A stretch of DNA of 64,000 bases, taken from the NCBI RefSeq assembly GCF_963921235.1, contig NC_086097.1:71488001-71552000 (forward strand), given 5' to 3'. A program made the translations under genes and the position numbers. Positions 1 through 51,682 of this stretch are shown piece after piece. The notes below the pieces were generated by a model. That model was not told where the DNA came from. It saw only the letters and a program-made list of their open reading frames with translations, and did not search any database. Source of the DNA: Mobula hypostoma (taxonomy: Eukaryota). Position 1 is the stretch's first letter. The number at the start of each line of letters is the position of its first letter.

Positions 1-118
1 GTTAGGCAAGTGACAATAGCTTTTCAGTGTGGTAGAGTGAAAGACGGGGTATTTAAGGAACACACATCAAAGTTGCTGGTGAACGCAGCAGGCCAGGCAG
101 CATCTCTAGGAAGAGGTA

Positions 119-156
119 CAGTCGACGTTTCAGGCCGAGACCCTTCGTCAGGACTA
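119..156 (-). ncRNA. Minimal type-I hammerhead ribozyme in Penelope-like repeat
   Basis: Reverse complement reads UAGUC CUGACGA A GGGUCUCGGCCU GAAAC GUC GACUG: both core boxes present, stem I AGUC/GACU, GUC cleavage triplet. Confidence 0.8.
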
Positions 157-963
157 TCTGAAGGAAGAGTGAGTAAGAGATTTGAAAGTTGAAGGGGGAG
201 GGGGCAATCCAAAATGATAGGAGAAGACCAGAGGGGGAGAGATGGAGCCAAGAGCTGGACAGGTACTTGGCAAAAGGGATACGACAGGATCATGGGACAG
301 GAGGTCCAGGAAGAAAGACGGGGGGGGGGGAACCCAGAGGATGGGCAAGAGATATATTCAGAGGGACAGAGGGAGAAGAAGGAGAGTGAGAGAAAGAATG
401 TGTGTATAAAAGTAAGTAACAGATGGGGTACGAGGGGGAGGTGGGGCATTAGCGGAAGTTAGAGAAGTCGATGTTCATGCCATGAGGTTGGAGGGCTCCA
501 GCTTCCTCTCACCCCAACCCTCCCCTCTCCATTGACACCCCCAGCCTTCCCCCTCCCCCCTCTGATCCCAGCTCTCATCCGTGCCAGGTCTTTACCATCC
601 CCACTGACCTTCAACTGTTGGAGGCAGAATGCTCTGTCCTCAGTAAGGGCCTCACCTTTGTCCCCCTTCGCCCACACCTCAGCGAGTTCTGCATTCGCCA
701 TGATGCGGAACTCTTCTTCCGCCGTCTCCGTCTCCGAGCCTACTTCTTCTCTGTCCCTCTGAATATAGCCCTTGCCCATCCTCTGGGTTCCCCTCCCCCC
801 CGTCTTTCTTCCCGGACCTCTGTCCCATGATCCTCTCGTATCCCATTTGCCAATCACCTGTCCAGCTCTTGGCTCCATCCCTCCCCCTCCTGTCTTCTCC
901 TATCATTTTGGATCGCCCCCTCCCCCTCCAACTTTCAAATCTCTTACTCACTCTTCCTTTAGT

Positions 964-1001
964 TAGTCCTGATGAAGGGTCTCGGCCTGAAACGTCGACT
1001 G
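964..1001 (+). ncRNA. Minimal type-I hammerhead ribozyme in Penelope-like repeat
   Basis: TAGTC CTGATGA A GGGTCTCGGCCT GAAAC GTC GACTG: canonical CUGAUGA/GAAA core, stem I AGUC/GACU. Confidence 0.8.
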
Positions 1002-1390
1002 CACCTCTTCCTAGAGATGCTGCCTGGCCTGCTGCATTCACCAGCAACTTTGATGTGTGTTGCTTGAATTTCCAGCATCTGCAGAATTCCTGTTGTTTGT
1101 GTATTTAAGGAAAGTGGCTTCCTGACAATGCCTTTAAACTGGCCCACCCATAATTGTGTAATTGTTATATATGCTATTAACCATGGCCAACATTGCTTTG
1201 TCATAACTCCTTCATGTATCTCTATATTAATATACTTCGACAGTCCTTGTGTAGACTGTCAAAAACCCAGAGTTTGTTATTGATCTACCGATTCGACAGT
1301 TAATGAATTCTTGCCCACTGCACAATGAGAAGGAAGCAACATCTAATGTATGCAATTTCCATCTACATGGTGGCTATGTATTTAGTCACT

Positions 1391-3099: not shown

Positions 3100-3199
3100 G
3101 TCCTGAAGAACAGTCTCAGCCCAAAGTGTCGACTGTTTATTCAGTTCCATAGATACTGCGTGAACTGATGAATTCCTCCAGCATTTTGTGCACATTACT
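3100..3199 (+). mobile_element. 100-bp solo Penelope-like terminal repeat starting at a decayed hammerhead
   Basis: Begins GTCCTGAAGAACAGTCTCAGCCCAAAGTGTCGACTG; flanked by 10-bp direct repeat CAGAATATTA (3090-3099, 3200-3209). Confidence 0.75.
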
Positions 3200-9049: not shown

Positions 9050-10490
9050 TCAGGAGCGATGACACACTAGTGGAATGGATGGATAAATGGCAAACAAAAT
9101 TTAATGCAAAGAAACGCAAAGTGTTACATAGGTCGGAAGAACAAAAATAATTAACGTAAATAAGAGGAAACACTTTAAAGGGGATAGAAAAATTGAGTTG
9201 ATTGGGGATATCCATAAATAGCCAATTCAAAGTACTAGGACAAGCTGGAAAAGTGGCTGAGAAAGTATTTGCACTTTAGAAATAGAAGCATAGAGTATAA
9301 GGTCAAGGAACTCTTGATGATTGTTTGTAAAACCCTGGTTAAACTACAACTGCAGTGTTGGATCAGGGTGGTGCTTTAGAAAAGAAAGGAAGGCTTTAGG
9401 AACATAACAAAATCTGCAGATGCTGGAAATCCGAGCAACACACACAAAATGCTGGAGGAACTCAGCTGGCTAGGCAGCATCTATGGAAAAAAAAGTACAT
9501 TTGACGTTTCGGGCCATGGATGGACATATCAGAATAGGAATGGGAAGTGGAATTAAAGTGGGTGGCCACTGGGAGATCCCACTTGTTTTGGCAGATGGAG
9601 CGTAAATGCTCGATGAAGCAGTCTCCCAATCTGTCAAGTCTCATCGATATACAGGAGACCACACAGAGAGCACTGAACACAGTAAATGGCCCCAGCAGAC
9701 TCACAGGTTGAGTGTCGCCTCAGCTGGAAGGACTGTTTAGGGCCCTGAATGGTAGTGAGGGAGGAGGTGTTAGGGGCAGGTGTAGCACTTGTTCCACTTG
9801 CAAGGATAAGTGCCAGGGCGGAGATCAGTAGGGAGGGATGAATGGACAAGGGAGTCACGTAGGGAGCGATCCACGTAGAAAGTGGGGGGGAGGGAGGAGG
9901 GAAAGATGAGCTTGGTGTTGATATCCTGTTAGAGGTGGTGGATGTTTTGGAGAATTATGTACTGGATGCGGAGGCTGGTAGGGTGGTAGATGAGGACAAG
10001 GGGAACCCTATCCCTGGTAGGGTGGAGAGAGGATGGGGTAAGAGCAGACATGCATGAAATGGAAGAGGTGCAATTGCGGGCAGCGCTGATGGTGAAGGAA
10101 GGGAAGCCCCTTCTTCGAAAAAGTAGGACTCCTCCTTCGTTGCAACAGGAGGACAAAACAGAATGAAGAAAACATTTACTGAAAGGATTACTGGAATGAA
10201 CGACATTGGCAATGTGGATAGACTGGAAAATCTGGGGCTGTTCTCTTTGGAATACAGGAAGCTGATAGGGAATGTAAACCCTTGAGGATGTGGAGAGGAG
10301 GCAGAGATGTTTTTAGAACTATAGGACATATAAAAAGTGTTACTGGATAAAAGGACTAAAAGTGATATCAGGAAAAAAATTTTAAACAGCAAGTTGTCAG
10401 GAGCAGCAGTGGAAGCAGCTTTTGTTATATTTTTCAACACAAACTTGGTGGACTGAACAGCCTTCATTTGTAATCATTCTGTGACTCCAT
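9050..10490 (+). mobile_element. Old CR1 3' fragment split by a Penelope-like insertion
   Basis: 'LVEWMDKWQTKFNAKK' and TATAAAACCCTGGTT-like motifs at 9050-9400; CR1 sequence resumes at ~10150-10490. Confidence 0.6.
9400..10140 (-). mobile_element. Penelope-like element fragment (GIY-YIG endonuclease region)
   Basis: Peptides 'CESAGAIYCVQCSLCGLLYIDET', 'LGDCFIEHLRSI...DLPVATHFNS', 'DRVPLVLIYHP'; terminal repeat at ~9400-9515. Confidence 0.8.
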
Positions 10491-11941: not shown

Positions 11942-12876
11942 ATGTCTCCTGAGACGGTGATGTGCCTCTCATGTGAGATGTGGCAGTCTTGGGGGAACAC
12001 CCCTCTCCGGCACAGTCACATCTGCCAGAAGTGCATACGGCTGGGCGATCTGGAAGACCAGGTAAGGAATCTGGAGCAGCAGCTGGATGACCTTCGACTC
12101 ATAAGGGAGAATGAGGCAGTCATAGATGAGAGCTACCGGGAGGTAGTCACACCTAGGCTGTCGGAAGCAGGTCGTTGGGTGACAGTCAGAGGGGGGAAAG
12201 CGAAGGTGAGCAGACAGGTAGTGCAGAGCACCCCTGTAGCCATCCCCTGAATAATAAGTTTACCATCCTGGATACTGTTGGCAGGGACACAGCTGTGAGC
12301 CACAGTGGCAGGGCCTCCGGCACTGAGTCTGACCCTGTGGTGCAGAAGGGTGGGACAGAGAAGAGGAGAGCTGTCGTCATTGGAGACTCTATAGTCAGGG
12401 GAGCAGACAGGTGATTTTGTGGATGTGATAAGGACACCCGCATGGTTTGTTGCCTCCCGGGTGCCAGGGTCTGGGATGTCTCTGACCGGGTGCACGACAT
12501 CCTGGTACGAGAGGGAAAACAACCAGAAGTCATGATACGTGTTGGGACCAACGACATAGGCAGGAAGAGGGATGAGGTCCTGAAGTGTGAGTTTCGGGAA
12601 TTAGGCAGAAGGCTGAAGAACAGGACCTCAAGGGTGACGTTCTCAGGATTGCTGCCAGTGCTACATGACAGAGATGGTAAGAATTGGAGGAGATGGCAGT
12701 TGAATGCGTGGCTGAGGAGTTGGTGCAGGGAGCAGGGTTTTAGATTTTTAGATCATTGGGATCTCTTCTGGGGAAGGTGGGACCTGTACAGATTGGATGG
12801 GTTGCACCTGAACTCAAGGGGGAGCAATATCCTTGCAGGTAGGTTTGCTAGCATGGTTCGGGAGGGTTTAAACTAA
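11942..12876 (+). pseudogene. CR1 ORF1 (Cys/His zinc finger, coiled coil, SGNH/GDSL esterase), disrupted
   Basis: MCLSCEMW..HICQKC; LEDQVRNLEQQLDDL; VVIGDSIVR; VGTND; DGLHLN. Frameshift near 12243 and in-frame TGA at 12412-12414. Confidence 0.9.
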
Positions 12877-12959
12877 TTTACGAGGGGGATGGGACCCAGA
12901 GCGATAGAGCAGTGAAAGAAGTGCATGGAGTAAAGGCAGATCTAACATAGAGAGAGGCT

Positions 12960-15695
12960 TTGAGGAAAGAGAAGCAAAATAAACGGTGTAAAGACAGTAA
13001 GGTAGAAGGGTGTGTGTACCTCAATGCAAGAAGCATCAGGAACAAAGGTGTTGAACTGAGAGCTTGGATACATACATGGAATTATGATGTAGTGGCCATT
13101 ACAGAGACTTTGCTGGCACCAGGGCAGGAATGGATTCTCAATATTCCTGGATTTCAGTGCTTTAAAAGGGATAGAGAGGGCAGACAAAGGGGAGGAGGGG
13201 TGGCATTACTGGTCAGGGATACTATTACAGCTACAGAAAGGGTGGGTAATGTAGCAGGATCCTCTTTTGAGTCAATATGCGTGGAAGTCAGGAACAGGAA
13301 GGGAGCAGTTACTCTACTGGGGGTATTCCATAGGCCCCCTGGTAGCAGCAGAGATACAGAGGAGCAGATTGGGAGGCAGATTTTGGAAAGGTTCAAAAAT
13401 GACAGGGTTGTTATCATGGGTGACTTTAACTTCCCTAATATTGGTTGGCACCTGATTAGTTCCAAGGGTTTAGATGGGGCAGAGTTTGTTAAGTGTGTCC
13501 AGGATGGATTCCTGTCACAGTATGTTGACAGGCCGACCAGGGGGAATGCCATACTAGATCTAGTACTAGGTAATGAACCGGGTCAGGTCACAGATCTCTC
13601 AGTGGGTGAGCATCTGGGGGACAGTGACCACCGCTCCCTGGCCTTTATAATTATCATGGAAAAGGATAGAATCAAAGAGGACAGGAAAATTTTTAATTGG
13701 GGAAAGGCAATTTATGAGGCTATAAGGCTAGAACTTGCGGGTGTGAATTGGGATGATGTTTTTGCAGGGAAATGTACTATGGACATGTGGTCGATGTTTA
13801 GAGATCTCTTGCGGGATGTAAGGGATAAATTTGTCCCGGTGAGGAAGATAAAGAATGGTAGGGTGAAAGAACCATGGGTGACAAGTGAGGTGGAAAATCT
13901 AGTCAGGTGGAAGAAGGCAGCATACATGAGGTTTAGGAAGCAAGGATCAGATGGATCTATTGAGGAATATAGGGAAGCAAGAAAGGAGCTTAAGAAGGGC
14001 CTGAGAAGAGCAAGAAGGGGGCATGAGAAGCCCTTGGCGAGTAGGGTAAAGGAAAACCCCAAGGCATTCTTCAATTATGTGAAGGAAAAAAGGATGACAG
14101 GAGTGAAGGTAGGACCGATTAGAGATAAAGGTGGGAAGATGTGCCTGGATGAATACTTCTCTTCGGTATTCACCAATGAGAGGGAACTTGATGATGGTGA
14201 GGACAATATGAGTGAGGGTGATGTTCTGGAGCATGTTGATATTAAGGGAGAGGAGGTGTTGGAGTTGTTAAAATACATTAGGACAGATAAGTCCCCGGGG
14301 CCTGACGGAATATTCCCCAGGCTGCTCCACGAGGCAAGAGAAGAGATTGCTGCGCCTCTGGCTGGGACCTTTATATCCTCGTTGTCCACGAGAATGGTAC
14401 CGGAGGATTGGAGGGAGGCGAATGTTGTTCCCTTGTTCAAAAAAGGTAGTAGGGATAGTCCGGGTAATTATAGACCAGTGAGCCTTACGTCTGTGGTGGG
14501 AGAGCTGTTGGAAAAGATTCTTAGAGATAGGATCTATAGGCATTTAGAGAATCATGGTCTGATCAGGGACAGTCAGCATGGCTTTGTGAAGGGCAGATCG
14601 TGTCTAACAAGCCTGACAGAGTTCTTTGAGAAGGTGACCAGGCATATAGATGAGGGTAGTGCAGTGGATGTGATCTATATGGATTTTAGTAAGGCATTTG
14701 ACATGGTTCCACATGGTAGGCTTATTCAGAAAGTTAGAAGGCATGGGATCCAGGGAAGTTTGGCCAGGTGGATTCAGAATTGGCTTGCCTGCAGAAGGCA
14801 GAGGGTGGTGGTGGAGGGAGTACATTCAGATTGGAGGATTGTGACTAGTGGTGTCCCACAAGGATCTGTTCTGGGACCTCTACTTTTCGTGATTTTTATT
14901 AACGACCTGGATGTTGGGGTAGAAGGGTGGGTTGGCAAGTTTGCAGACGACACAAAGGTTGGTGGTGTTGTAGATAGTGTAGGGGATTGTCAAAGATTGC
15001 AGAGAGACATTGGTAGGATGCAGAAGTGGGCTGAGAAGTGGCAGATGGAGTTCAACCTGGAGAAGTGTGAGGTGGTACACTTTGGAAGGACAAACTCCAA
15101 GGCAGAGTACAAAGTAAATGGCAGAATACTTGGTAGTGTGGAGGAGCAGAGGGATCTCGGGGTACATGTCCACAGATCCCTGAAAGTTGCCTCACAGGTG
15201 GATAGGGTAGTTAAGAAAGCTTATGGGGTGTTAGTTTTCATAAGTCGAGGGATAGAATTTAAGAGTCGCGATGTAATGATGCGGCTCTATAAAACTCTGG
15301 TTAGGCCACACTTGGAGTACTGTGTCCAGTTCTGGTCACCTCACTATAGGAAGGATGTGGAAGCATTGGAAAGGGTACAGAGGAGATTTACCAGGATGCT
15401 GCCTGGTTTAGAAAGTATGCATTATGATCAGAGATTAAAGGAGCTAGGGCTTTACTCTTTGGAGAGAAGGAGGATGAGAGGAGACATGATAGAGGTGTAC
15501 AAGATAATAAGAGGAATAGATAGAATGGATAGCCAGCGCCTCTGCCCCAGGGCACCACTGCTCAATACAAGAGGACATGGCTTTAAGGTAAGGGTGGGAA
15601 GTTCAAGGGGGATATTAGAGGAAGGTTTTTTACTCAGAGAGTGGTTGGTGTGTGGAATGCACTGCCTGAGTCACTGGTGGAGGCAGATACACTAG
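12960..15695 (+). CDS. CR1 ORF2: APE endonuclease + reverse transcriptase (911 aa open; C-terminal frameshift near 15592)
   Basis: YLNARS, AITET, GGGVAL, MGDFN, LDLV, SDH (APE); KSPGPDG, YRPVSLTS, QHGF, DFSKAFD, GVPQGSVLGP, FADD (RT). True start uncertain. Confidence 0.92.
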   Translation: MRKEKQNKRCKDSKVEGCVYLNARSIRNKGVELRAWIHTWNYDVVAITETLLAPGQEWILNIPGFQCFKRDREGRQRGGGVALLVRDTITATERVGNVAGSSFESICVEVRNRKGAVTLLGVFHRPPGSSRDTEEQIGRQILERFKNDRVVIMGDFNFPNIGWHLISSKGLDGAEFVKCVQDGFLSQYVDRPTRGNAILDLVLGNEPGQVTDLSVGEHLGDSDHRSLAFIIIMEKDRIKEDRKIFNWGKAIYEAIRLELAGVNWDDVFAGKCTMDMWSMFRDLLRDVRDKFVPVRKIKNGRVKEPWVTSEVENLVRWKKAAYMRFRKQGSDGSIEEYREARKELKKGLRRARRGHEKPLASRVKENPKAFFNYVKEKRMTGVKVGPIRDKGGKMCLDEYFSSVFTNERELDDGEDNMSEGDVLEHVDIKGEEVLELLKYIRTDKSPGPDGIFPRLLHEAREEIAAPLAGTFISSLSTRMVPEDWREANVVPLFKKGSRDSPGNYRPVSLTSVVGELLEKILRDRIYRHLENHGLIRDSQHGFVKGRSCLTSLTEFFEKVTRHIDEGSAVDVIYMDFSKAFDMVPHGRLIQKVRRHGIQGSLARWIQNWLACRRQRVVVEGVHSDWRIVTSGVPQGSVLGPLLFVIFINDLDVGVEGWVGKFADDTKVGGVVDSVGDCQRLQRDIGRMQKWAEKWQMEFNLEKCEVVHFGRTNSKAEYKVNGRILGSVEEQRDLGVHVHRSLKVASQVDRVVKKAYGVLVFISRGIEFKSRDVMMRLYKTLVRPHLEYCVQFWSPHYRKDVEALERVQRRFTRMLPGLESMHYDQRLKELGLYSLERRRMRGDMIEVYKIIRGIDRMDSQRLCPRAPLLNTRGHGFKVRVGSSRGILEEGFLLREWLVCGMHCLSHWWRQIH

Positions 15696-16860
15696 GGAAG
15701 TTTAAGAGACTACTAGACAGGTATATGGAGGAATCTAAGGTGGGGGTTTATATGGGAGGCAAGGTTTGAGGGTCGGCACAATATTGTGGGCCGAAGGGCC
15801 TGTACTGTGCTGTACTATTCTATGTTCCATGTTCTATATTGGGTTTTATTATATTGGCGCAGGAGGCCACTGGCAAGGACAAGGGCAATTTGCGATGCCC
15901 CTGCAAAGCCCTCATCCCTTGAATGTATAAATTAAACAAAAAGGCAGATAAGTCAGAATGAGAGAGGGATGAAGGATTAAAGTGGTAGACAAACCCCTTT
16001 AGTAAGTGGTAAAACAATATTTGTTTTCTCCCTAGCGAGCACTGAATATAGCCCACCAGAATAAAAAAGGTGCAAGTGAATCACCGTTTCATGTGGAAGG
16101 ACTGTTTGGCACCCTGGGCAGTGGGAGGTGGAGAGGTCAACGGAAAGGTGCTGTGTCTCCTGCATGTAGCATGCCAGAGTTCATTGAGAAAGGGAGTAGT
16201 TGCTGGGTATGGAATGAAAATGTGTGGTAGAAGCTCATTGAAGATGGCAGAAATTGTGAGTCTTTACTCTCATTTGTGCCTTTAAAAAAGATGTAATAAT
16301 GTCTAAAAGAGTCACAGGCAAAGATGCATCCGATGTGTTACCTTGCCAACTCTGAGGTCTTTCCTCTTGTAGTACTTGTTTGTCAGCAGTACTGATGATA
16401 TGATATTTGGTACTCAATGGCAGGCCGGCCTTCCTTCATGGCAAGAGTGGATGGAGCTTTACAAGGCAAGTTCCAGCTCTCTCCTTACTGCTTTTACCAG
16501 TGGTTTTGTCGGTAGAGATTCTTGAAAATGCACTGTTTGATGAGACATCTAATGAAATGAGTGACACAAATATAACTTCCTTGGAATAGTTTGCGTACAA
16601 GTCTGCTATTGAAACATTTTTGAAAAAATATGTGCTCTTATCTCCATGAACTCAATAAGATTATATCTATTTAACATAGAAATTAGAGCAATAATTTTTC
16701 TGGAAAAATTACAAAGGAGCTTACAAAGTAAACTCATACATTAATCTCTCCTGACCACTCAGTGGTATAACTATTTCTCCCATTTGTTTAAAATAAACAT
16801 AAAATTATTGCAAGAAAATCCATTATAATTAAATATGCAAACATAAAATTACTGCTCAAT

Positions 16861-17019
16861 CCCTTACTCACTCTTCCTTCAGTTAGTCCTGACGAAGGGT
16901 CTCGGCCTGAAACGTCGACTGCGCCTCTTCCTATAGATGCTGCCTGGCCTGCTGCGTTCACCAGCAACTTTGATGTGTGTTGCTTGAATTTCCAGCATCT
17001 GCAGAATTCCTGTTGTTTG
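16861..17019 (+). mobile_element. 159-bp solo Penelope-like terminal repeat (young)
   Basis: Near-identical to 943-1099; perfect 15-bp direct repeat AAATTACTGCTCAAT (16846-16860, 17020-17034). Confidence 0.9.
16884..16921 (+). ncRNA. Minimal type-I hammerhead ribozyme
   Basis: TAGTC CTGACGA A GGGTCTCGGCCT GAAAC GTC GACTG. Confidence 0.8.
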
Positions 17020-17522
17020 AAATTACTGCTCAATATGATTTAGTGCACAACATTGCGGTGAGGGAAACACAGTAGTCATCGATGGCTAACAGCACTAAAA
17101 GTAACCAGATGTGGTTTATGGAATGTGGCAGAAAAGGAAGAAGGTGGTGATCCAAAAGGGAAGAAAAGAAATTGGTTTGTATTCTCCTTCTCATGATTTT
17201 GTCACGACTCAGTCATGGCTAGTACATTTCATCCAGCCTCATTAAACTTTGCCCCTTCTCTGACATTCTCAAATATGAAATCAGCCTCCGGCATTTCCGT
17301 TTCTACAGAATCTCTTGTAACAGGACTGGTTGTCCAGACACTATCAATGTTCTTAGACTTTGAAGTTACTTACCCTCTCTAATATTGCCAGATCCAGTAA
17401 TCCTTCTCTGAGCAGCTCCTGTGCATGTATTTGATTTCTTAGGAAAAGAATAACCAAATTATTTAACTCTGCAATTTCACACAAAATGTTATTTCTCAAC
17501 AACAAACAGCCTGTTCCCTATC

Positions 17523-18803
17523 ACAAACAAGAGAAGATCTGCAGATGCTGGAAATCCAAGCAACACACACAAAATGCTGGAGGAGTTCAGCAGGCCAGGC
17601 ATCTGTGGAAAAGAGTACAGTCGATGTTTCGGGCTGAGATCCTTCAGCAGGACCAGAGAAAAAAGGATGAGGAGTCAGAGTTAGAAAGGGGAAGGAGGGA
17701 GGAAAAAACACAAGGTGATAGGTAAAACTGGGAGGGATAGGGGTGAAGTAAAGAGCTGGGAAGTTGATTGGTAAAAGAGACACATGGATGGAGAAGGGGA
17801 AATCTAATAGGAAAGGACAGAAGGCCATGGAAGAAAGAAAAAGTAGGAGGAGCACCAAAGCGAGGCACTGGGCAGGCAAGGAGATAAGGTGAGAGAGAGA
17901 AAAGGGGACGGGGAATGGAGAAGGTGGGGGAGGGGGCATTACCGGAAGTTCGAGAAATCAATGTTCAGGTGTGACTCCCCCAGCCTGAGTGTGGCCTCAT
18001 CGCAATAGTAGAGAGGGCCTTGGATGGACATGTCGGAAAGGGAATGGAAAGTGGAACTAAAATGGGTGGCCACTGGAAGATCCTGCTTTTCTTGGTGGAT
18101 GGAACGAAGGTGCTCAGCGAAGCGATTTCTCAATCAATGCCTGGTCTCACTGACATACCAGATGCCATACCGGAAGCCCCGGGTAAAATAGATGACCCCA
18201 ACAGACTCACAGGTGATGTGTTGCCTCAACTGGAAGGACTGTTTGGGGCACTGAATGGTAGTGAGGGAGGAAGTGTAGAAGTGTAGCACTTGCTCCACTT
18301 GCAAGGATAAGTGCCAGGGATGAATGGACAAGGGAGTCACGGAATGCAGAAAGTGGGGGGGGGGGTGCGAGGGAAAGATGTGCTTGGTGGTAGGATCCCA
18401 CTGGAGATGCAGAAGTTACAGAGAATTATGTGCTGGATGCAGAAACTGGTGGGGTGGCAGGTGAGGACGAAAGGAACCTTATCCCTGGTGGGGTGGCGAG
18501 AGGATGGGGTGAGGGTATACGTGCATGAAATGGAAGAGATGCAGGTGAGGGCAGTGCTGATAGTGGAGGAAGGAAAGCCCCTTTCTTTGAAGAAGGAGGA
18601 CACCTCCTTCATTCTGGAATGAAAAGCATCATCCTAAGAACAGATACAGCAGAAATGGAGGAACTGAGAGAAGGGGATGGCATTTTTACAAGTAACAGGG
18701 TGGGAAGAGTTATAAAAGGAATAATGAAGGGTCACAGTCCGAAACAGCAACACTTTATTCCTTTTTATAGATGCAGTCTGACCTGCAGTATTTTGTGTGT
18801 GTT
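17523..18803 (-). mobile_element. Penelope-like element 3' part (RT thumb, Cys linker, GIY-YIG) with a short inverted arm at 18723-18803
   Basis: Peptides 'MKEVSSFFKERGFP', 'DKVPFVLTCHP', 'CESVGVIYF...YVSET', 'NRFAEHLRSI..DLPVATHF'; TYPCKWSKCY linker suggests Neptune-type; mutated hammerhead at ~17618-17655. Confidence 0.85.
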
Positions 18804-18924
18804 ACCAAGGTGCCTCATCCATTAACTCTTTCATTCCTGGAATCATTCTTGTAAACCTCCTCTGGACCTTTTCCAATGCCAGCATCACTTTCCATAAAGT
18901 TCCTTAAGATTGTTATAGCTGAGG

Positions 18925-29865: not shown

Positions 29866-30750
29866 CAGTGGATTCCTGTTAATTGGGCCATTGGATAATC
29901 AGGACAGTGGCTTATTTGGGACCTATCCCACTTAACTGGGGCAGGACACTGTTGCTGAACAGTTTCTGGCTAGTGTCAGATGCAAGCACTTGTGTAGTGT
30001 TAGATACTACACCATGCTCAGAGTGAATCGTTTTTAAATAGCATCAGTTACGTGCACTTGTCTTCAAAAAGCATTGATATTTGTCATTGATAGCTGGCAA
30101 GAAATAAGCAGTAAGCAAATTAGAAAAGTTTTGTTCTCTGCAGTTTCAAGCATTCAGACTTGGAGATGCCAGAAACAGCCAGGAGTAAAACTAAAAGGAA
30201 TTCACTACTTCAACAAGTTAGAAACTATAAAGATTTTGAAGGTATTGACAATCATCTTGAATGTTTCAATGAAAATGAGGATTTGGAGGATACAGTTGTT
30301 GATAGCATTGCATGAAAGCAGTCCTTTATCTACACTAGGTATCTGTCAACACACATCAAAGTTGCAGGTGAACACAGCAGGCCAGGCAGGATCTCTAGGA
30401 AGAGGTACAGTCGATGTTTTGGGCCGAGACCCTTCGTCAGGACACAGTACCTGTGCTGATTTTGTTCATCTACGGTCAATCAAAAGAATGTAGCAGTCTA
30501 CAGGTACTTTAGATGAATTCCTGCGTTGATAACACTTAGGTACTAATACACAGCTTTGTAATAGTGTTGATAGGGTTTTAATTTGTTCTGTGTTTCATTT
30601 ACATACATAATTTGTAACTCAGTTAAGCAGTGGTTCGTCTTTTCTATACCTTTTTAACTATTTCCATGAAACTTCAAATAACTGGGGCAGCTGCCTAATT
30701 GGACCAAAATATACTGATCCCAATGTGTCCCAATTAACCGGTATTCACGG
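29866..30750. mobile_element. Tigger/pogo-like non-autonomous DNA transposon, second copy
   Basis: TA|CAGTGGATTCCTGTTAATTGGG ... CCCAATTAACCGGTATTCACGG|TA; internal homology to 20374-21425. Confidence 0.85.
30347..30443 (-). mobile_element. Penelope-like terminal repeat with mutated hammerhead, nested in the DNA transposon
   Basis: Matches 61-154; absent from the sister copy near 21140; core changed GAAA>AAAA and GUC>AUC (CpG-type changes). Confidence 0.85.
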
Positions 30751-42539: not shown

Positions 42540-43175
42540 CCTCCTTGCAAACCTCACATTGCTCTACACCTGCCCATTCACCTCCTCCCTCACCTCCATT
42601 CAGGGCCCCTAACAGTCCTTCCAGTCGAGGCAACACTTCATCTGTGAATCTGCTGGGGTTGGCTACTGTGTCCGGTGCTCCTGATGCAGCCTCTTCTACA
42701 TTGGCGAGACGTGTCGTAAATTGGGGGATGGCATCGGTCAGCACCTCCACTCCATCTGCAAAAAGCAGAACTTCCTGCTGACCCAACCTTTTAATCGCAA
42801 TTCCCATTCCTGTTCTGACATGTCAGTCCATGGCCTCCTCTCGTGCCATGATGAGGCCACCCGCGGGGTGGAGGAGTAACACGCTGTGTTCCGTCTGGAT
42901 AACCTGAGGACATGAATATCAATTTCTCCTTCTAGTAAGAACATATTTTCCCTCCCCCTCCCCCTCCTGCATCTGTCCTCTTATCTCTTGTTACCTGCAT
43001 ATCACCTTCCCCTGATATCCCTCCTCCTTCCCTTTCTCCTATGGTCCACTCTCCTCTCCTATCAGATTCCTTCATCTCCAGCCCTTCACCTTTCGCACTC
43101 ACCTGGCTTCACCCATCACCTTCTATTCTCCTTCCACTGCTCCCACATTTTTGTTCTGGAATCTTCCCCCTTTTT
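42540..43175 (+). mobile_element. Penelope-like fragment (GIY-YIG region)
   Basis: CAGGGCCCCTAACAGTCCTTCCAG...CTACATTGGCGAGAC...CATGGCCTCCTC, same family as 9400-10140, followed by a pyrimidine tract. Confidence 0.8.
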
Positions 43176-43424
43176 TTTCATTTATCTGTTGCATACATTG
43201 TTGTAAATGCAGTTCCAGCCAGTGACAATAGTCTGTGTAATGTATTAGCTAATATTGAGAGTGTTTAATGTCGGGAGTTACTCAGAGCAGGTAAGGGTCA
43301 CTGAAGCATTGTTAACATCTCTTGAACAATTACACTCTTTGCCTTCAGTCAATGTCCACAGAGGTTTTACAGTCGCAGCAAGCTACAACAAAGCAGATAT
43401 GAAAGCAAGGACACTTTTTATATA

Positions 43425-45487: not shown

Positions 45488-45812
45488 CACAAACACAAGA
45501 AAGTCTGCAGATGCAGAAAATCCAAAGCAACAGACACAAAATGCTGGAGAAACTCAACAGGTCAGGAAGCAACTACGGAAAAGAATAAATAGTTTATGTT
45601 TAGAGCCAAGACCCCTCTTTAGGACCATAAGAGACCATGGGTTTGCAACTTTGGGAGGTGTTGTTAACAAACGTAGTGAATGGGCTTCACCTTTAGTTGA
45701 CAGCCTCCATCATAATGGAAGTGTTGGTCCTGAAAAGGGGTCTTGGCTCAAAACATCAACTGTTTTGTCTTTTCTGTAGATGCTGCCTGACAAGCTGAGT
45801 TCTCCCAGTGTC
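45488..45812. mobile_element. Inverted pair of Penelope-like terminal repeats around a ~100-bp spacer
   Basis: Arm 45488-45626 (minus) and arm 45726-45812 (plus), both bounded internally at the decayed hammerhead (GGTCCT(A/G)AA). Confidence 0.75.
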
Positions 45813-46950: not shown

Positions 46951-49288
46951 TCTTTCTTGAGCATGTTTTTGGTGTGTCAGTGCTGCTGAATAGCCCTATT
47001 AACAATTCCTATAACTTACTGCCTGCCTCACTGGAAATGGGTGTGGGGAAAGGGGAATATTGACACTTATCATTTTTGTATTCTCAATTGAGCTCAATGT
47101 TAATTTTTACCAATAAAATTTTACATAAACATGGATAACTCTTCTTAGAACATGATGGGTACTCATTTATCTCTTCTTCTGAAATCATTTTTCTGCAACC
47201 CTCTTTAATTCTGAATGCCTAATTCTCTGTTGGACACCTCACACTTATTTATATAGATTGGTTGTGACTTAATGTCATCAAAGGATCATAGATATTTAGA
47301 GCACTGATGGAAGCTACTTGGAGCAAATTTCAACTAAAGAGGAGATATGTGGACGAATCCTTTTGGCTTTGGTTGTTATCTTACCTGCATGTCCCAGTAA
47401 TTTCATGGATCTGGATATGTGCACAAAGCTCCCCCTTTCTGAATGTGCTACTCAATGTATCATGTGAGCAACTTGTACAGGAGAGTAATGACAAGCAGTG
47501 ACACATCTCTAACTAGAGAGACCCCAACACCTACCTTTGCCATTCAGTGGCATTGTCATTATTAAGCTCCCCCAGCAGCAAAGCCCATTGAGAACAGAGT
47601 CAACTGCAAGATCCACATAGATAGGGTGGCTATAAGAGCAGGCCATATTCTGGGTGTGCTGTGATTTATCTAATGACAAATCCACATCAACTACAAGACC
47701 TGTCAGGAGGATAATGGAATGTTCTTTTTATCAGTTAAATGGATATGTTCAGCTAAAGTAAGGCTTGATAAGCTTAGTAACCATTCAGAACAAAGCTGCC
47801 TGCCTGAACGGCACTCCATTCACAATTCTGAACCTTCATCCCCTTCACCGCCTGCATTGTGTGTCATCTGTAAAATGCACTGTGCTACTTGCCAGCTACT
47901 CTAACCGCATTTCTGAAATACAGAATTGTACCACAAGGAAGAGCCAAGGCAGCACAAAGCACCACCATCTGCAGATTCCCCTCTACTATACACCAGCCAC
48001 CCTTAAAAATAAACCACCAGAGCTTCATCGTCAATGGGTCTGACTCCTGGGACTCCATTCCAACGAGTCCTGTACGAAGTTCAAATTTCAAGGTTCCAAG
48101 TAAATTTATTATCAAAGTGCATGTATGTTATCATATACTACCTCGAAATTCAATTAAAAAAGACAAACTGTCAAAATACAGTAAACAAACAAACAAACAA
48201 ATAAATCAATAAATAAGTGAGTCCACAGGTTGTGGGATCAGTTCAGTGCTGAGGTGAGTGAAGTTATCCACGCCGGTTCAAGAGCCTGATAGTGAAGTGT
48301 AATAACTGTTCCTGAACCTGGTGGTGTGGGGCTTAAGGTTCTTGTACCTTCTTCCCAATGAATTCGGGATGGGCATTAAACACAGCTTTGCTACAGACAA
48401 AAATAGTGATAAATTAAATAGCATTACCTTGGTATTTTTGCTTTCCCTAATTGAATTACTTCAGACATCTTGGATGGGATTCCATTTGCCACTTTTCTAC
48501 CTAACTGACCAGACCTTTGATAGTTCAGTGCTATCTCCAACTTCCTTTCCCTTATTAGCCACAGACTAATTTTTATTTCATCAGAAACATTCTTAACCTT
48601 AATGTCAAACTTAAGTCTAACTCAGTTACATAATACATGAAAAGAATAGGGCCAAAACCAGAGCCTGGCAGAACTGCTGGTCGGCGAGAAAAACAACCCA
48701 AACCAAAAGCTGTGTTTGAACCAGGACATTCATAGTCCGGTGAGGGTTAGGTCTGCAGCATTCAAGGCCTGTGTTCCAAAACTATACAGAAGTCTAGATG
48801 CTACCTATGGAAGGCTATTTTAAGGGCAAAACACAATTCCAGTTGAGATTAGGGATAGAATCGAATGCACATCAGCTCTGGCAGGTTCTGCACCCATTAC
48901 TTTCTACAAAGCGAAGCCTAACATCATGAATGGCTGTGATGCTTCATTTCCAGATGAGCTCAAAGTATTTTATGCATGCTTTGAAAAGGAGAATAAAACT
49001 GCACGTGCAAATATCTGCAGCATCTGGAGACCCTATGATCTCTGTCTTGGAGGTCGACATCAGAACATCTTTCAAGAGGGTAAACCCTCACAAGGGCCTG
49101 ATGGTGTACCTAGTAGGATACTAAAATCCTGTGCCAATCAACTGGCGGGAGTGTTCAAATACACCTTCAATCTCTCACTGCACCAGTCAGAGTTTCCCAC
49201 CTGCTTCAAAAGGGTAACAATCATACCAGTGCCCAAGAAGAACACAGTGAGCTGCCCCATTGTCTATTGCCCAGTGCTACTCACATCT

Positions 49289-49424
49289 CACAAAATGCTG
49301 GAGGAACTCCGAAGTCGGGCAGCATCTATTGAAAAAAGTAAGCAGTTGATGTTTCAGGCCAAGACCCATCATCAGGACTTTTAATCAAGATTCCAGCGCC
49401 TACAGATTTTCTCATGTTTGTGGG
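49289..49424. mobile_element. Mini Penelope-like insertion with inversion, inside Rex1
   Basis: 10-bp TSD ACTCACATCT (49279-49288, 49425-49434); minus arm ends at CATCAGGACT (hammerhead 5' edge), then a short plus arm. Confidence 0.8.
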
Positions 49425-50604
49425 ACTCACATCTACTGGGATGAAGTGCTTGGAGAGGTTAACCATGGCTAAAATCAACTCCTGCCTAAGCAAGGACCTG
49501 GATCTGCTGCAACTTGTCTATTGCCACAATAGTTCTGCAGCAGATGTAATCTCATTGGCTCTATACTTGGCTTTGGATCACCTGGATAATAGTGATACCT
49601 ACATTAGGCTGCACTTTATTGATTACACCTCAGCATTCCACATACTCATACCCTCTTTTCTAAACAACAAGTTCCAGAACCTGGGCCTCTATACTTCCCT
49701 CTGTAACTTCATCCTTGACTTCCTCATCCAGAAACCACAGTCTGTGTGGATCAGAAATAACATCTCCTCTTCACTGATAATCAACACTGGCACACTTCAA
49801 GGATGTGTGCTTATTAGCCCACTGCTCTACTCTCTTTGTACCCATGACTGTGTGGCTAGGCACAGATCAAACAGCATCTATAAATTTGCTGACAACTCAA
49901 TTATTGTTGACAGAATTTCAGATGGTAACGAGGAAGTGTACAGGAGTGAGATAGATCAGCTGGTTGAGTGAATTTGCAGCAACAACCTTACATTCAACAT
50001 TGGTAAGACCAAGGAATTGATTGTGGACTTCAGGAAGGAGAAGTCACAGGAACACATACCAGTCCTCATTGATCAGCAGTGGAAAAGGTCAGGAGTTTCA
50101 AGTTCCTGGGTGTCAACATCTCTGAAGATCTACCCTGGACCCAACATACTGATGCAACTCCAAAGAAGGCATGACAACAACAATACTTCATTAGGAATTT
50201 GAGGGGAATTGGTATGTCACCAAAGACGTTTGCAAATTTCTACTGATATACCATAGAGAGCATTCTAACTAGTTGCATCACTGTATGGTATGGAGAGGCC
50301 ACTGCACAGGATCGGAAAAAACTGCAGAAAGTTGTAGAAGTCAGCCAGCTCCATCATAGGCACTAGCCTTCACAGGTTCGAGGACGCCTTCAAAAGGCGA
50401 TGCCTCAAATAGATGGCATCCATCATTATGGACCCTCATCACCAAGGGTATGTCCTCTTCTCATGGCTACCATCAAGGAGATATGGGTGTGTCTTCTGTG
50501 GGACAAGCCCTTGAACCTCAAGATTCGACATGCTGTGCGATCAGAGACGATCTTCTGCACCCCTCTCTTATAACGCATGGTCATCCGAGAGAGTGTGACA
50601 ACAA

Positions 50605-51515: not shown

Positions 51516-51682
51516 TTAACACAAGAGATTCTGCAGATGCAGAGAATCTAGAGCAACACACACAAACTGCTGGAGGGACTCGGCAACCTTGATGCAGGGT
51601 CTCGACCTAAAACGTTGACTGTTTAATCCCCTCCATAGATGCTGCCTGACCTGCTGAGTTCTTCCAGCAATTTGTATGTTTC
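51516..51682. mobile_element. Inverted mini Penelope-like repeat pair
   Basis: Minus arm AACACAAGAGATTCTGCAGATG... joined to a plus arm starting CTTGATGCAGGGTCTCGACCTAAAACGTTGACTG (decayed hammerhead). Confidence 0.75.

Follow-up and report, generated by a model that had tools for sequence, protein, structure and literature searches.

In the parts of the cited works drawn on here, minimal hammerhead ribozymes are described from the pseudo-LTRs (pLTRs) of metazoan Penelope-like elements (PLEs), including the fish elements Xena, Poseidon and Neptune, and solo minimal hammerheads are ascribed to truncated PLEs (Cervera and De la Pena 2014, PMC4209133). A single motif of this kind gave no cleavage and dimers gave low cleavage (PMC4209133), and PLE hammerheads are likewise reviewed as weak dimer ribozymes (PMC6765202). 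In the Poseidon element of Anolis, the motif cleaved only with the element's own protein, hammerhead mutants left insertion in vitro unaffected, and a tail of 30-40 nt lies between two internal start sites of the reverse transcriptase (RT) (Frangieh et al. 2024, PMC11167929). An optional tail of 30-40 nt is also described in rotifers and other PLEs, and an inverted tail-less arm joined to a tailed arm is the published PLE layout (PMC3846280; PMC8557442). In most PLE insertions the 5' part is missing and a single terminal repeat is present, and animal retrozymes, which derive from PLE pLTRs, are tandem repeats in which two or more hammerhead units follow one another (Li, Clavereau and Pollet 2026, bioRxiv 10.64898/2026.07.22.740005).

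The locus considered here is a 159-bp insert at 16861-17019 of a 64-kb stretch of DNA (the whole stretch analysed, hereafter the window). It is very probably a copy of an EN+ PLE that lacks most of its 5' part and was dead on arrival. Judged by its sequence, the insert is not a unit of its own; it is the 3' end of a PLE, made up of the end of the UTR, a hammerhead, the remaining pLTR and a tail. The kind is already published, solo pLTR-hammerhead fragments of PLEs being known.

With the complex EN+ PLE insertions as described by Arkhipova et al. (2013, PMC3846280) and Craig et al. (2021, PMC8557442), the insert and its relatives share high 5' truncation, an inverted tail-less arm, a tail at one end, target-site duplications (TSDs) of 8-15 bp, microhomology at the 5' junction and solo pLTRs, whereas the insert itself is a simple single arm. 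With the Poseidon element PAc of Anolis carolinensis, as reported in PMC11167929, they share two 3' end classes around a 30-40 nt tail, an AT-rich target, and a pLTR hammerhead whose cut site does not mark the insertion ends. PAc, however, belongs to the Penelope/Poseidon clade, whereas related copies here carry a Zn-finger-like Neptune/Nematis linker, and its ORF starts in stem II, where the insert has no ATG. Non-LTR retrozymes, as characterised in bioRxiv 10.64898/2026.07.22.740005, are like the insert non-coding, with a type-I hammerhead and PLE-pLTR sequence, but they are tandem, whereas the insert is a solo, TSD-bounded copy that ends at the PLE tail.

The target site and the age of the insertion

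The insert is flanked by an exact 15-bp TSD (AAATTACTGCTCAAT; Table 1), and the 64-kb window has no other exact 15-mer direct repeat whose copies lie 100-300 apart. At the 5' junction the last three TSD bases (AAT) also match the PLE sequence expected there, a microhomology, and the alignment of the copy at 943 reaches 16858, into the left TSD.

Contigs of four out of 23 runs were compared over 16300-17500: X1, the source run; X5, a second sample of the same organism; and X6 and X10, from two other organisms. Two of the four, X6 and X10, hold contigs that join 16845 to 17020, an empty site that omits 174 (159 + 15) bases and keeps one TSD copy, with 15 and 14 letters fitting either side. The flanks of these contigs differ from the window at 19 of 1027 (X6) and 49 of 1018 (X10) aligned bases. 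No empty-site joint is present among the rows listed for X1, and in X5 one contig crosses the right junction but reaches just 27 letters into the insert, short of the 31-letter threshold. Because both relatives carry the empty site with one TSD, the insertion is young; on these contigs, it is younger than the split from the ~2%-divergent relative, or else polymorphic across that split. Two claims of a first-pass annotation, made from the letters of the stretch, are thereby upheld: the perfect 15-bp TSD, by the repeat comparison and the two empty sites, and the recent insertion, by the empty sites.

Table 1. Coordinates (window numbering) of the insert, its parts and related PLE copies.
Feature	Coordinates	Strand	Basis or content
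Left TSD, 15 bp	16846..16860		Repeat comparison; single copy at X6 and X10 empty sites
End of pyrimidine-rich PLE 3' UTR, ~23-24 nt	16861..16883	+	Matches 943-963 and 157-177(-), which continue upstream into UTR/ORF
Minimal type-I hammerhead motif	16884..16921	+	Both catalytic boxes, helices I/II; matches the definition given in PMC4209133
Rest of pLTR to proximal 3' end class	16922..16983	+	End region of the copies at 61, 30347 and 3199
Optional ~35-nt PLE tail to distal 3' end class	16984..17019	+	Copies at 1099, 17524, 19580, 45490 and 62819 end here
Right TSD, 15 bp	17020..17034		Exact repeat of left TSD
Longer insertion of same young subfamily, ~1040 bp	61..1100		12-bp TSD at 49-60 and 1101-1112
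Inverted tail-less arm of 61-1100	61-~495	-	GIY-YIG C-terminus, stop, pyrimidine-rich 3' UTR, pLTR without last ~35 nt
Plus arm of 61-1100	~495-1100	+	N-terminal ORF piece (~495-749), internal jump, 3' UTR, pLTR, tail
Older-subfamily PLE 3' part adjoining insert	17522..18808	-	RT thumb, CX4CxxC-type linker region, GIY-YIG, UTR, decayed hammerhead, tail
Inverted tail-less pLTR arm of 17522-18808	~18725-18808	Inverted relative to rest	pLTR arm without tail
Short pLTR copies starting <=3 nt from helix I	3100-3199(+), 30347-30443(-), 45488-45627(-), 45726(+), 46481(-), 49289-49424

Relation to longer Penelope-like elements

In BLAST the insert is 96% identical over 157 nt to the 3' end of the insertion at 61-1100, and the two share the same 3' end. 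Contigs that continue before 16858 (X1, X6, X10) read as PLE 3' UTR, as at 905-942. Since upstream-continuing contigs read as UTR and the 3' end falls at the tail, the copy is taken to be a 5'-truncated PLE end. Such a copy was one of the options first offered for the insert, and it is the one sustained, as the same 3' end closes the ORF-bearing insertion at 61-1100 and related copies continue upstream. The window copies fall into two 3' end classes ~35 nt apart, near 16982-16984 and 17018-17019 in the coordinates of the insert; in contigs, loose-end clusters lie behind 16984 (X6), 17018/17019 (X1, X6) and 17019 (X5), among the rows listed. In the plus arm of 61-1100, the N-terminal ORF piece abuts the 3' UTR, the whole of RT and EN being skipped by an internal jump or a deletion.

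The link to coding PLEs comes from protein comparisons. The N-terminal ORF piece of 61-1100 gave two matches among 31 candidates, both stingray proteins, at 85% and 78%, so that the host is probably a ray. One of these led to 58 longer homologs (among 1169 candidates), the majority of which have RT domains in Pfam and several GIY-YIG domains, and tblastn with three long homologs placed ORF remnants at 585-749, 9513-10174, 18017-18726 and 42565-42906. The ORF pieces joined to the pLTR at 61-1100 and 17522-18723 match full-length RT+GIY-YIG proteins. Pfam reported no PLE domain in seven window fragments or in P0001/P0002, and the identity rests on the homolog search and tblastn. A CX2-5CxxC linker between RT and EN is complete in an older copy near 9775, partial near 18280 and 42565, and present as a pattern in 35 of the 58 longer homologs; the region is absent from the young-subfamily copies of the window. 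A Cys linker in this position is given as a mark of Neptune and Nematis (PMC8557442), and by the linker in its older related copies the family is a candidate for the Neptune/Nematis type.

No full-length copy of the young subfamily lies in the 64-kb window, and its source copy would have been autonomous. Downstream of the hammerhead, the frame that begins at the first ATG is closed in the young subfamily by a 1-nt insertion (16937-16987 compared with 9401-9482(-) and 17524-17600(-)), so that a non-autonomous source is conceivable. In older copies this frame continues unbroken as far as the tail end; it weakly resembles homologous ORF starts and may be the ORF start.

Relatives are numerous. 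BLAST returned 16 matches in the 64-kb window, the insert included, and 20 of 22 nhmmer rows reached E<=0.001 (12 of these being training sequences), against E 0.094 for the best match in shuffled sequence; the earlier estimate of more than a dozen copies stands. The insert had been described as nearly identical to copies at 119-156(-) and 964-1001(+). Over the hammerhead 38-mer, these differ from it by 0 and 1 base, as was said, but they are the arms of one ~1040-bp PLE insertion and not short units. On the stretch, 101,226 X1 contigs were placed with depth heaped on the insert, which bears out "high-copy" in the sense of very abundant and is not a copy number; nor is the summed X1 depth on the insert, about a million times that of the flank. 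Among copies, TSD lengths are 15, 12, 10 and 10 bp, and inverted arms occur at 61-1100, 17522-18808 and 49289-49424. No TSD, or only a doubtful one, was found at 17522-18808, 45488-45627, 45726, 46481, 51521-51680, 19496, 62680, 9401 and 52651.

Several neighbouring elements were also seen. At 48824-49971(+), broken LINE RT frames are split by the TSD-bounded inverted pLTR insert at 49289-49424; at 45488-45812, two old pLTR copies, both from helix I, stand head to head with ~95 bp of unrelated sequence between them; and 42565-43178(+) is an older PLE piece with GIY-YIG and 3' UTR that ends just before the expected hammerhead start. An unbroken 914-codon frame at 12951-15695(+) with APE endonuclease and RT Pfam domains belongs to a young LINE, which we take to be CR1-like. 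Upstream of that frame, 12415-12876 is presumably an esterase-like ORF1 piece.

The steps of insertion can be drawn from published PLE biochemistry, set around the observed TSD, empty sites, identity with longer PLE 3' ends and two 3' end classes. A PLE RT/GIY-YIG protein would bind its own RNA and nick an AT-rich target with a 15-nt stagger; reverse transcription would start internally, at the distal start site that forms the tail end at 17019, and halt after 159 nt; and the cDNA would be joined to the target across the 3-nt microhomology. Short copies would keep the hammerhead because it sits, within the pLTR, no further than 135 nt from the RT start site, and it set neither end of the copy at 16861-17019.

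The hammerhead motif and the retrozyme alternative

The hammerhead string first reported for the insert is present, with its predicted cut, from the motif, between 16916 and 16917. Helix I (16884-16888/16917-16921) has 5 bp with a U.G end; the core CUGACGA occupies 16889-16895 and is followed, after A9, by an unpaired A at 16896; and helix II (16897-16900/16905-16908) has 4 bp and is closed by G.U, not the usual G-C. The GAAA box is present, and a palindromic ACGU at 16912-16915, with no loop, stands in place of helix III. The motif thus carries the defining CUGANGA and GAAA boxes, an NUH site, helices I and II and a palindromic 15.2-16.2, and its designation as a minimal type-I PLE hammerhead is supported by the boxes, the two helices and the palindrome without helix III. 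It makes up no more than ~38 of the insert's 159 nt, and the earlier description of the unit as "essentially a hammerhead" does not hold.

The PLE hammerheads described in PMC4209133 share with this motif the type-I layout, a helix I of 4-5 bp, an unpaired base between A9 and 10.1, a palindromic 15.2-16.2 without helix III and a mostly dispersed, single-motif distribution. They differ in that helix II, of 4 bp here, has 7-8 bp in the Schistosoma motifs, and in that the conserved G10.1-C11.1 pair is G.U in the young subfamily here. No chondrichthyan example was seen in the parts of that work drawn on here. Across 12 window copies the 10.1-11.1 pair is G.U in six, the insert among them, G-C in four and unpaired in two, and the conserved G10.1-C11.1 pair is therefore missing from the insert.

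The core is intact in 3 of the 12 aligned window copies that span the hammerhead. These copies are mostly decayed, giving low power, and in them none of nine pairs is altered on both sides, while 84.3% of helix cells are paired, the same as in shuffles; the stem covariation proposed as a check does not appear in them. Folding of the 159-nt RNA gives helices I and II a pairing probability of 0.001-0.003, the core being paired instead with the pyrimidine tract upstream of it; the stability of this RNA is unremarkable (z -1.17), the alternative pairing being preferred, and a helix III duplex between two copies is computed at only -3.1 kcal/mol. A covariance-model search, also proposed, gave no Rfam match at gathering score across the window and no hammerhead model around the insert even at E<=10. 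Two bacterial sRNA models at E<=10 near the insert are unrelated and were dismissed as chance. Viral, genome and metagenome contigs scanned for the exact pattern of the motif gave no match. The lone hammerhead copy without helix III is probably inactive; the hammerhead of the parent element probably cleaves weakly, as a dimer or helped by the element's protein. The predicted cut site was also considered as an insert end and was ruled out for this copy, which begins 56 nt upstream of it and stops 103 nt downstream.

An alternative origin for the insert is as a monomer shed by a non-LTR retrozyme, that is, by a tandem hammerhead repeat whose unit-length cleavage product is circularised and inserted anew. 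Vertebrates, one chondrichthyan among them, are reported to have retrozymes related to PLE pLTRs (bioRxiv 10.64898/2026.07.22.740005), and rare contigs do join 16982 back to 16858, or 16913-16923 back to 16874-16886. Monomers or circles would, however, join at the cut between 16916 and 16917, and no such joint is among those listed; no tandem hammerhead array was found, none of the eight TRF rows of the window holding the motif; and the insert ends at the PLE tail end while its neighbours carry ORF pieces. Such an origin is highly improbable. Head-to-tail joints of 16919 to 16885 occur in three, one and one contigs (X1, X6, X10), possibly from short tandem arrays elsewhere in the genomes, and the depths of back joints in the contigs of these three runs are 181 for 16913 to 16874 and 66 for 16982 to 16858.

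Neither a tRNA head nor, by a simple consensus, a Pol III A or B box was found in the insert, and the 5' ends of the window copies vary, with no fixed 5' end of the SINE type. The suggested fixed-length unit, retrozyme or SINE-like, is disfavoured by the missing tandem array, tRNA head and Pol III boxes, by relatives that continue into PLE UTR and ORF, and by ends that lie off the cut site.

Short copies that begin at helix I

The insert is best read as an ordinary truncated PLE copy, and a set of shorter relatives deserves separate consideration. Of 14 short window segments (a count that leaves out four long UTR-bearing copies, the internally deleted copy 9515 and weak nhmmer-only rows), six have 5' starts within 3 nt of helix I. 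All six lie at -1 to +1, for which the binomial P is ~5e-5, or ~0.002 after rough correction, in a post hoc calculation with two starts read by eye. Two of the six (3100-3199; 49289-49424) have exact 10-bp TSDs, and the 8-bp TSD of one other contains a single mismatch. Over the 60 nt that precede them, the six are 33-58% pyrimidine, compared with 75-88% in the four UTR-bearing copies. Within the insert, 16861-16886 holds a branch-point-like motif, a pyrimidine tract and an AG at helix I, which is a splice-acceptor resemblance only; the AG before helix I is missing in the copy at 17654.

The cluster could reflect a short non-coding RNA, ~100-135 nt long, with its 5' end at helix I. Such an RNA, produced by internal initiation or by splicing or processing at the AG, would be copied in trans by the PLE enzyme in a SINE-like manner, the 159-bp copy being a slightly longer relative. 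Random truncation predicts no such cluster, the upstream sequence of the six is poorer in pyrimidine than that of the UTR-bearing copies, and two of them are bounded by the exact TSDs given above; loose-end clusters of low agreement also lie before 16885/16886 in X1, X6 and X10. The intron 3' end of Drosophila Penelope maps to helix I (PMC4209133), and that element is described as having a transcription start site and an intron in the pLTR (PMC2377424), which makes a start or splice site one candidate cause of the cluster. Release of the RT at a refolding helix would be another, and such release on ordinary full-length RNA, with helix I refolding in the cDNA, would yield the same cluster. Moreover, the insert begins at -24, outside the cluster, and is without Pol III boxes by the simple consensus; the loose ends at 16885 are confounded, since it is immediately beyond the hammerhead that older subfamilies part from the query, and before 16885 the consensus still reads as pyrimidine tract; and five of the six copies are old and decayed, their ends being partly alignment ends. 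As an account of the 159-bp copy, a short RNA copied in trans is distinctly unlikely.

A broader proposal can be made tentatively, although it too is on the unlikely side. Many short copies would start at helix I either via a dedicated RNA of ~100-135 nt or because the hammerhead fold releases the RT there. In that case a defined mini-element headed by the hammerhead would be spread by the PLE enzyme to very high copy number, SINE-like, with a 5' end set by the fold and not by the cut; the insert, 24 nt longer, would be an ordinary truncation beside it. Clustering of PLE 5' ends at helix I was not found stated in the parts of the literature covered by a non-exhaustive search.

Read as a truncated PLE end, the insert at 16861-17019 offers a clean, if ordinary, example of a PLE insertion that is bounded by a TSD and dated by the empty sites of two relatives. 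It comes from an extremely abundant family, which is for that reason well suited to asking what role PLE hammerheads play: with tens of 5' and 3' ends in every 64 kb, one can see whether insertions ever end at the cut site or at a position given by the fold. Should the clustering at helix I prove true genome-wide, it would suggest that PLE retrotransposition involves a short template, or a termination step, not yet described.
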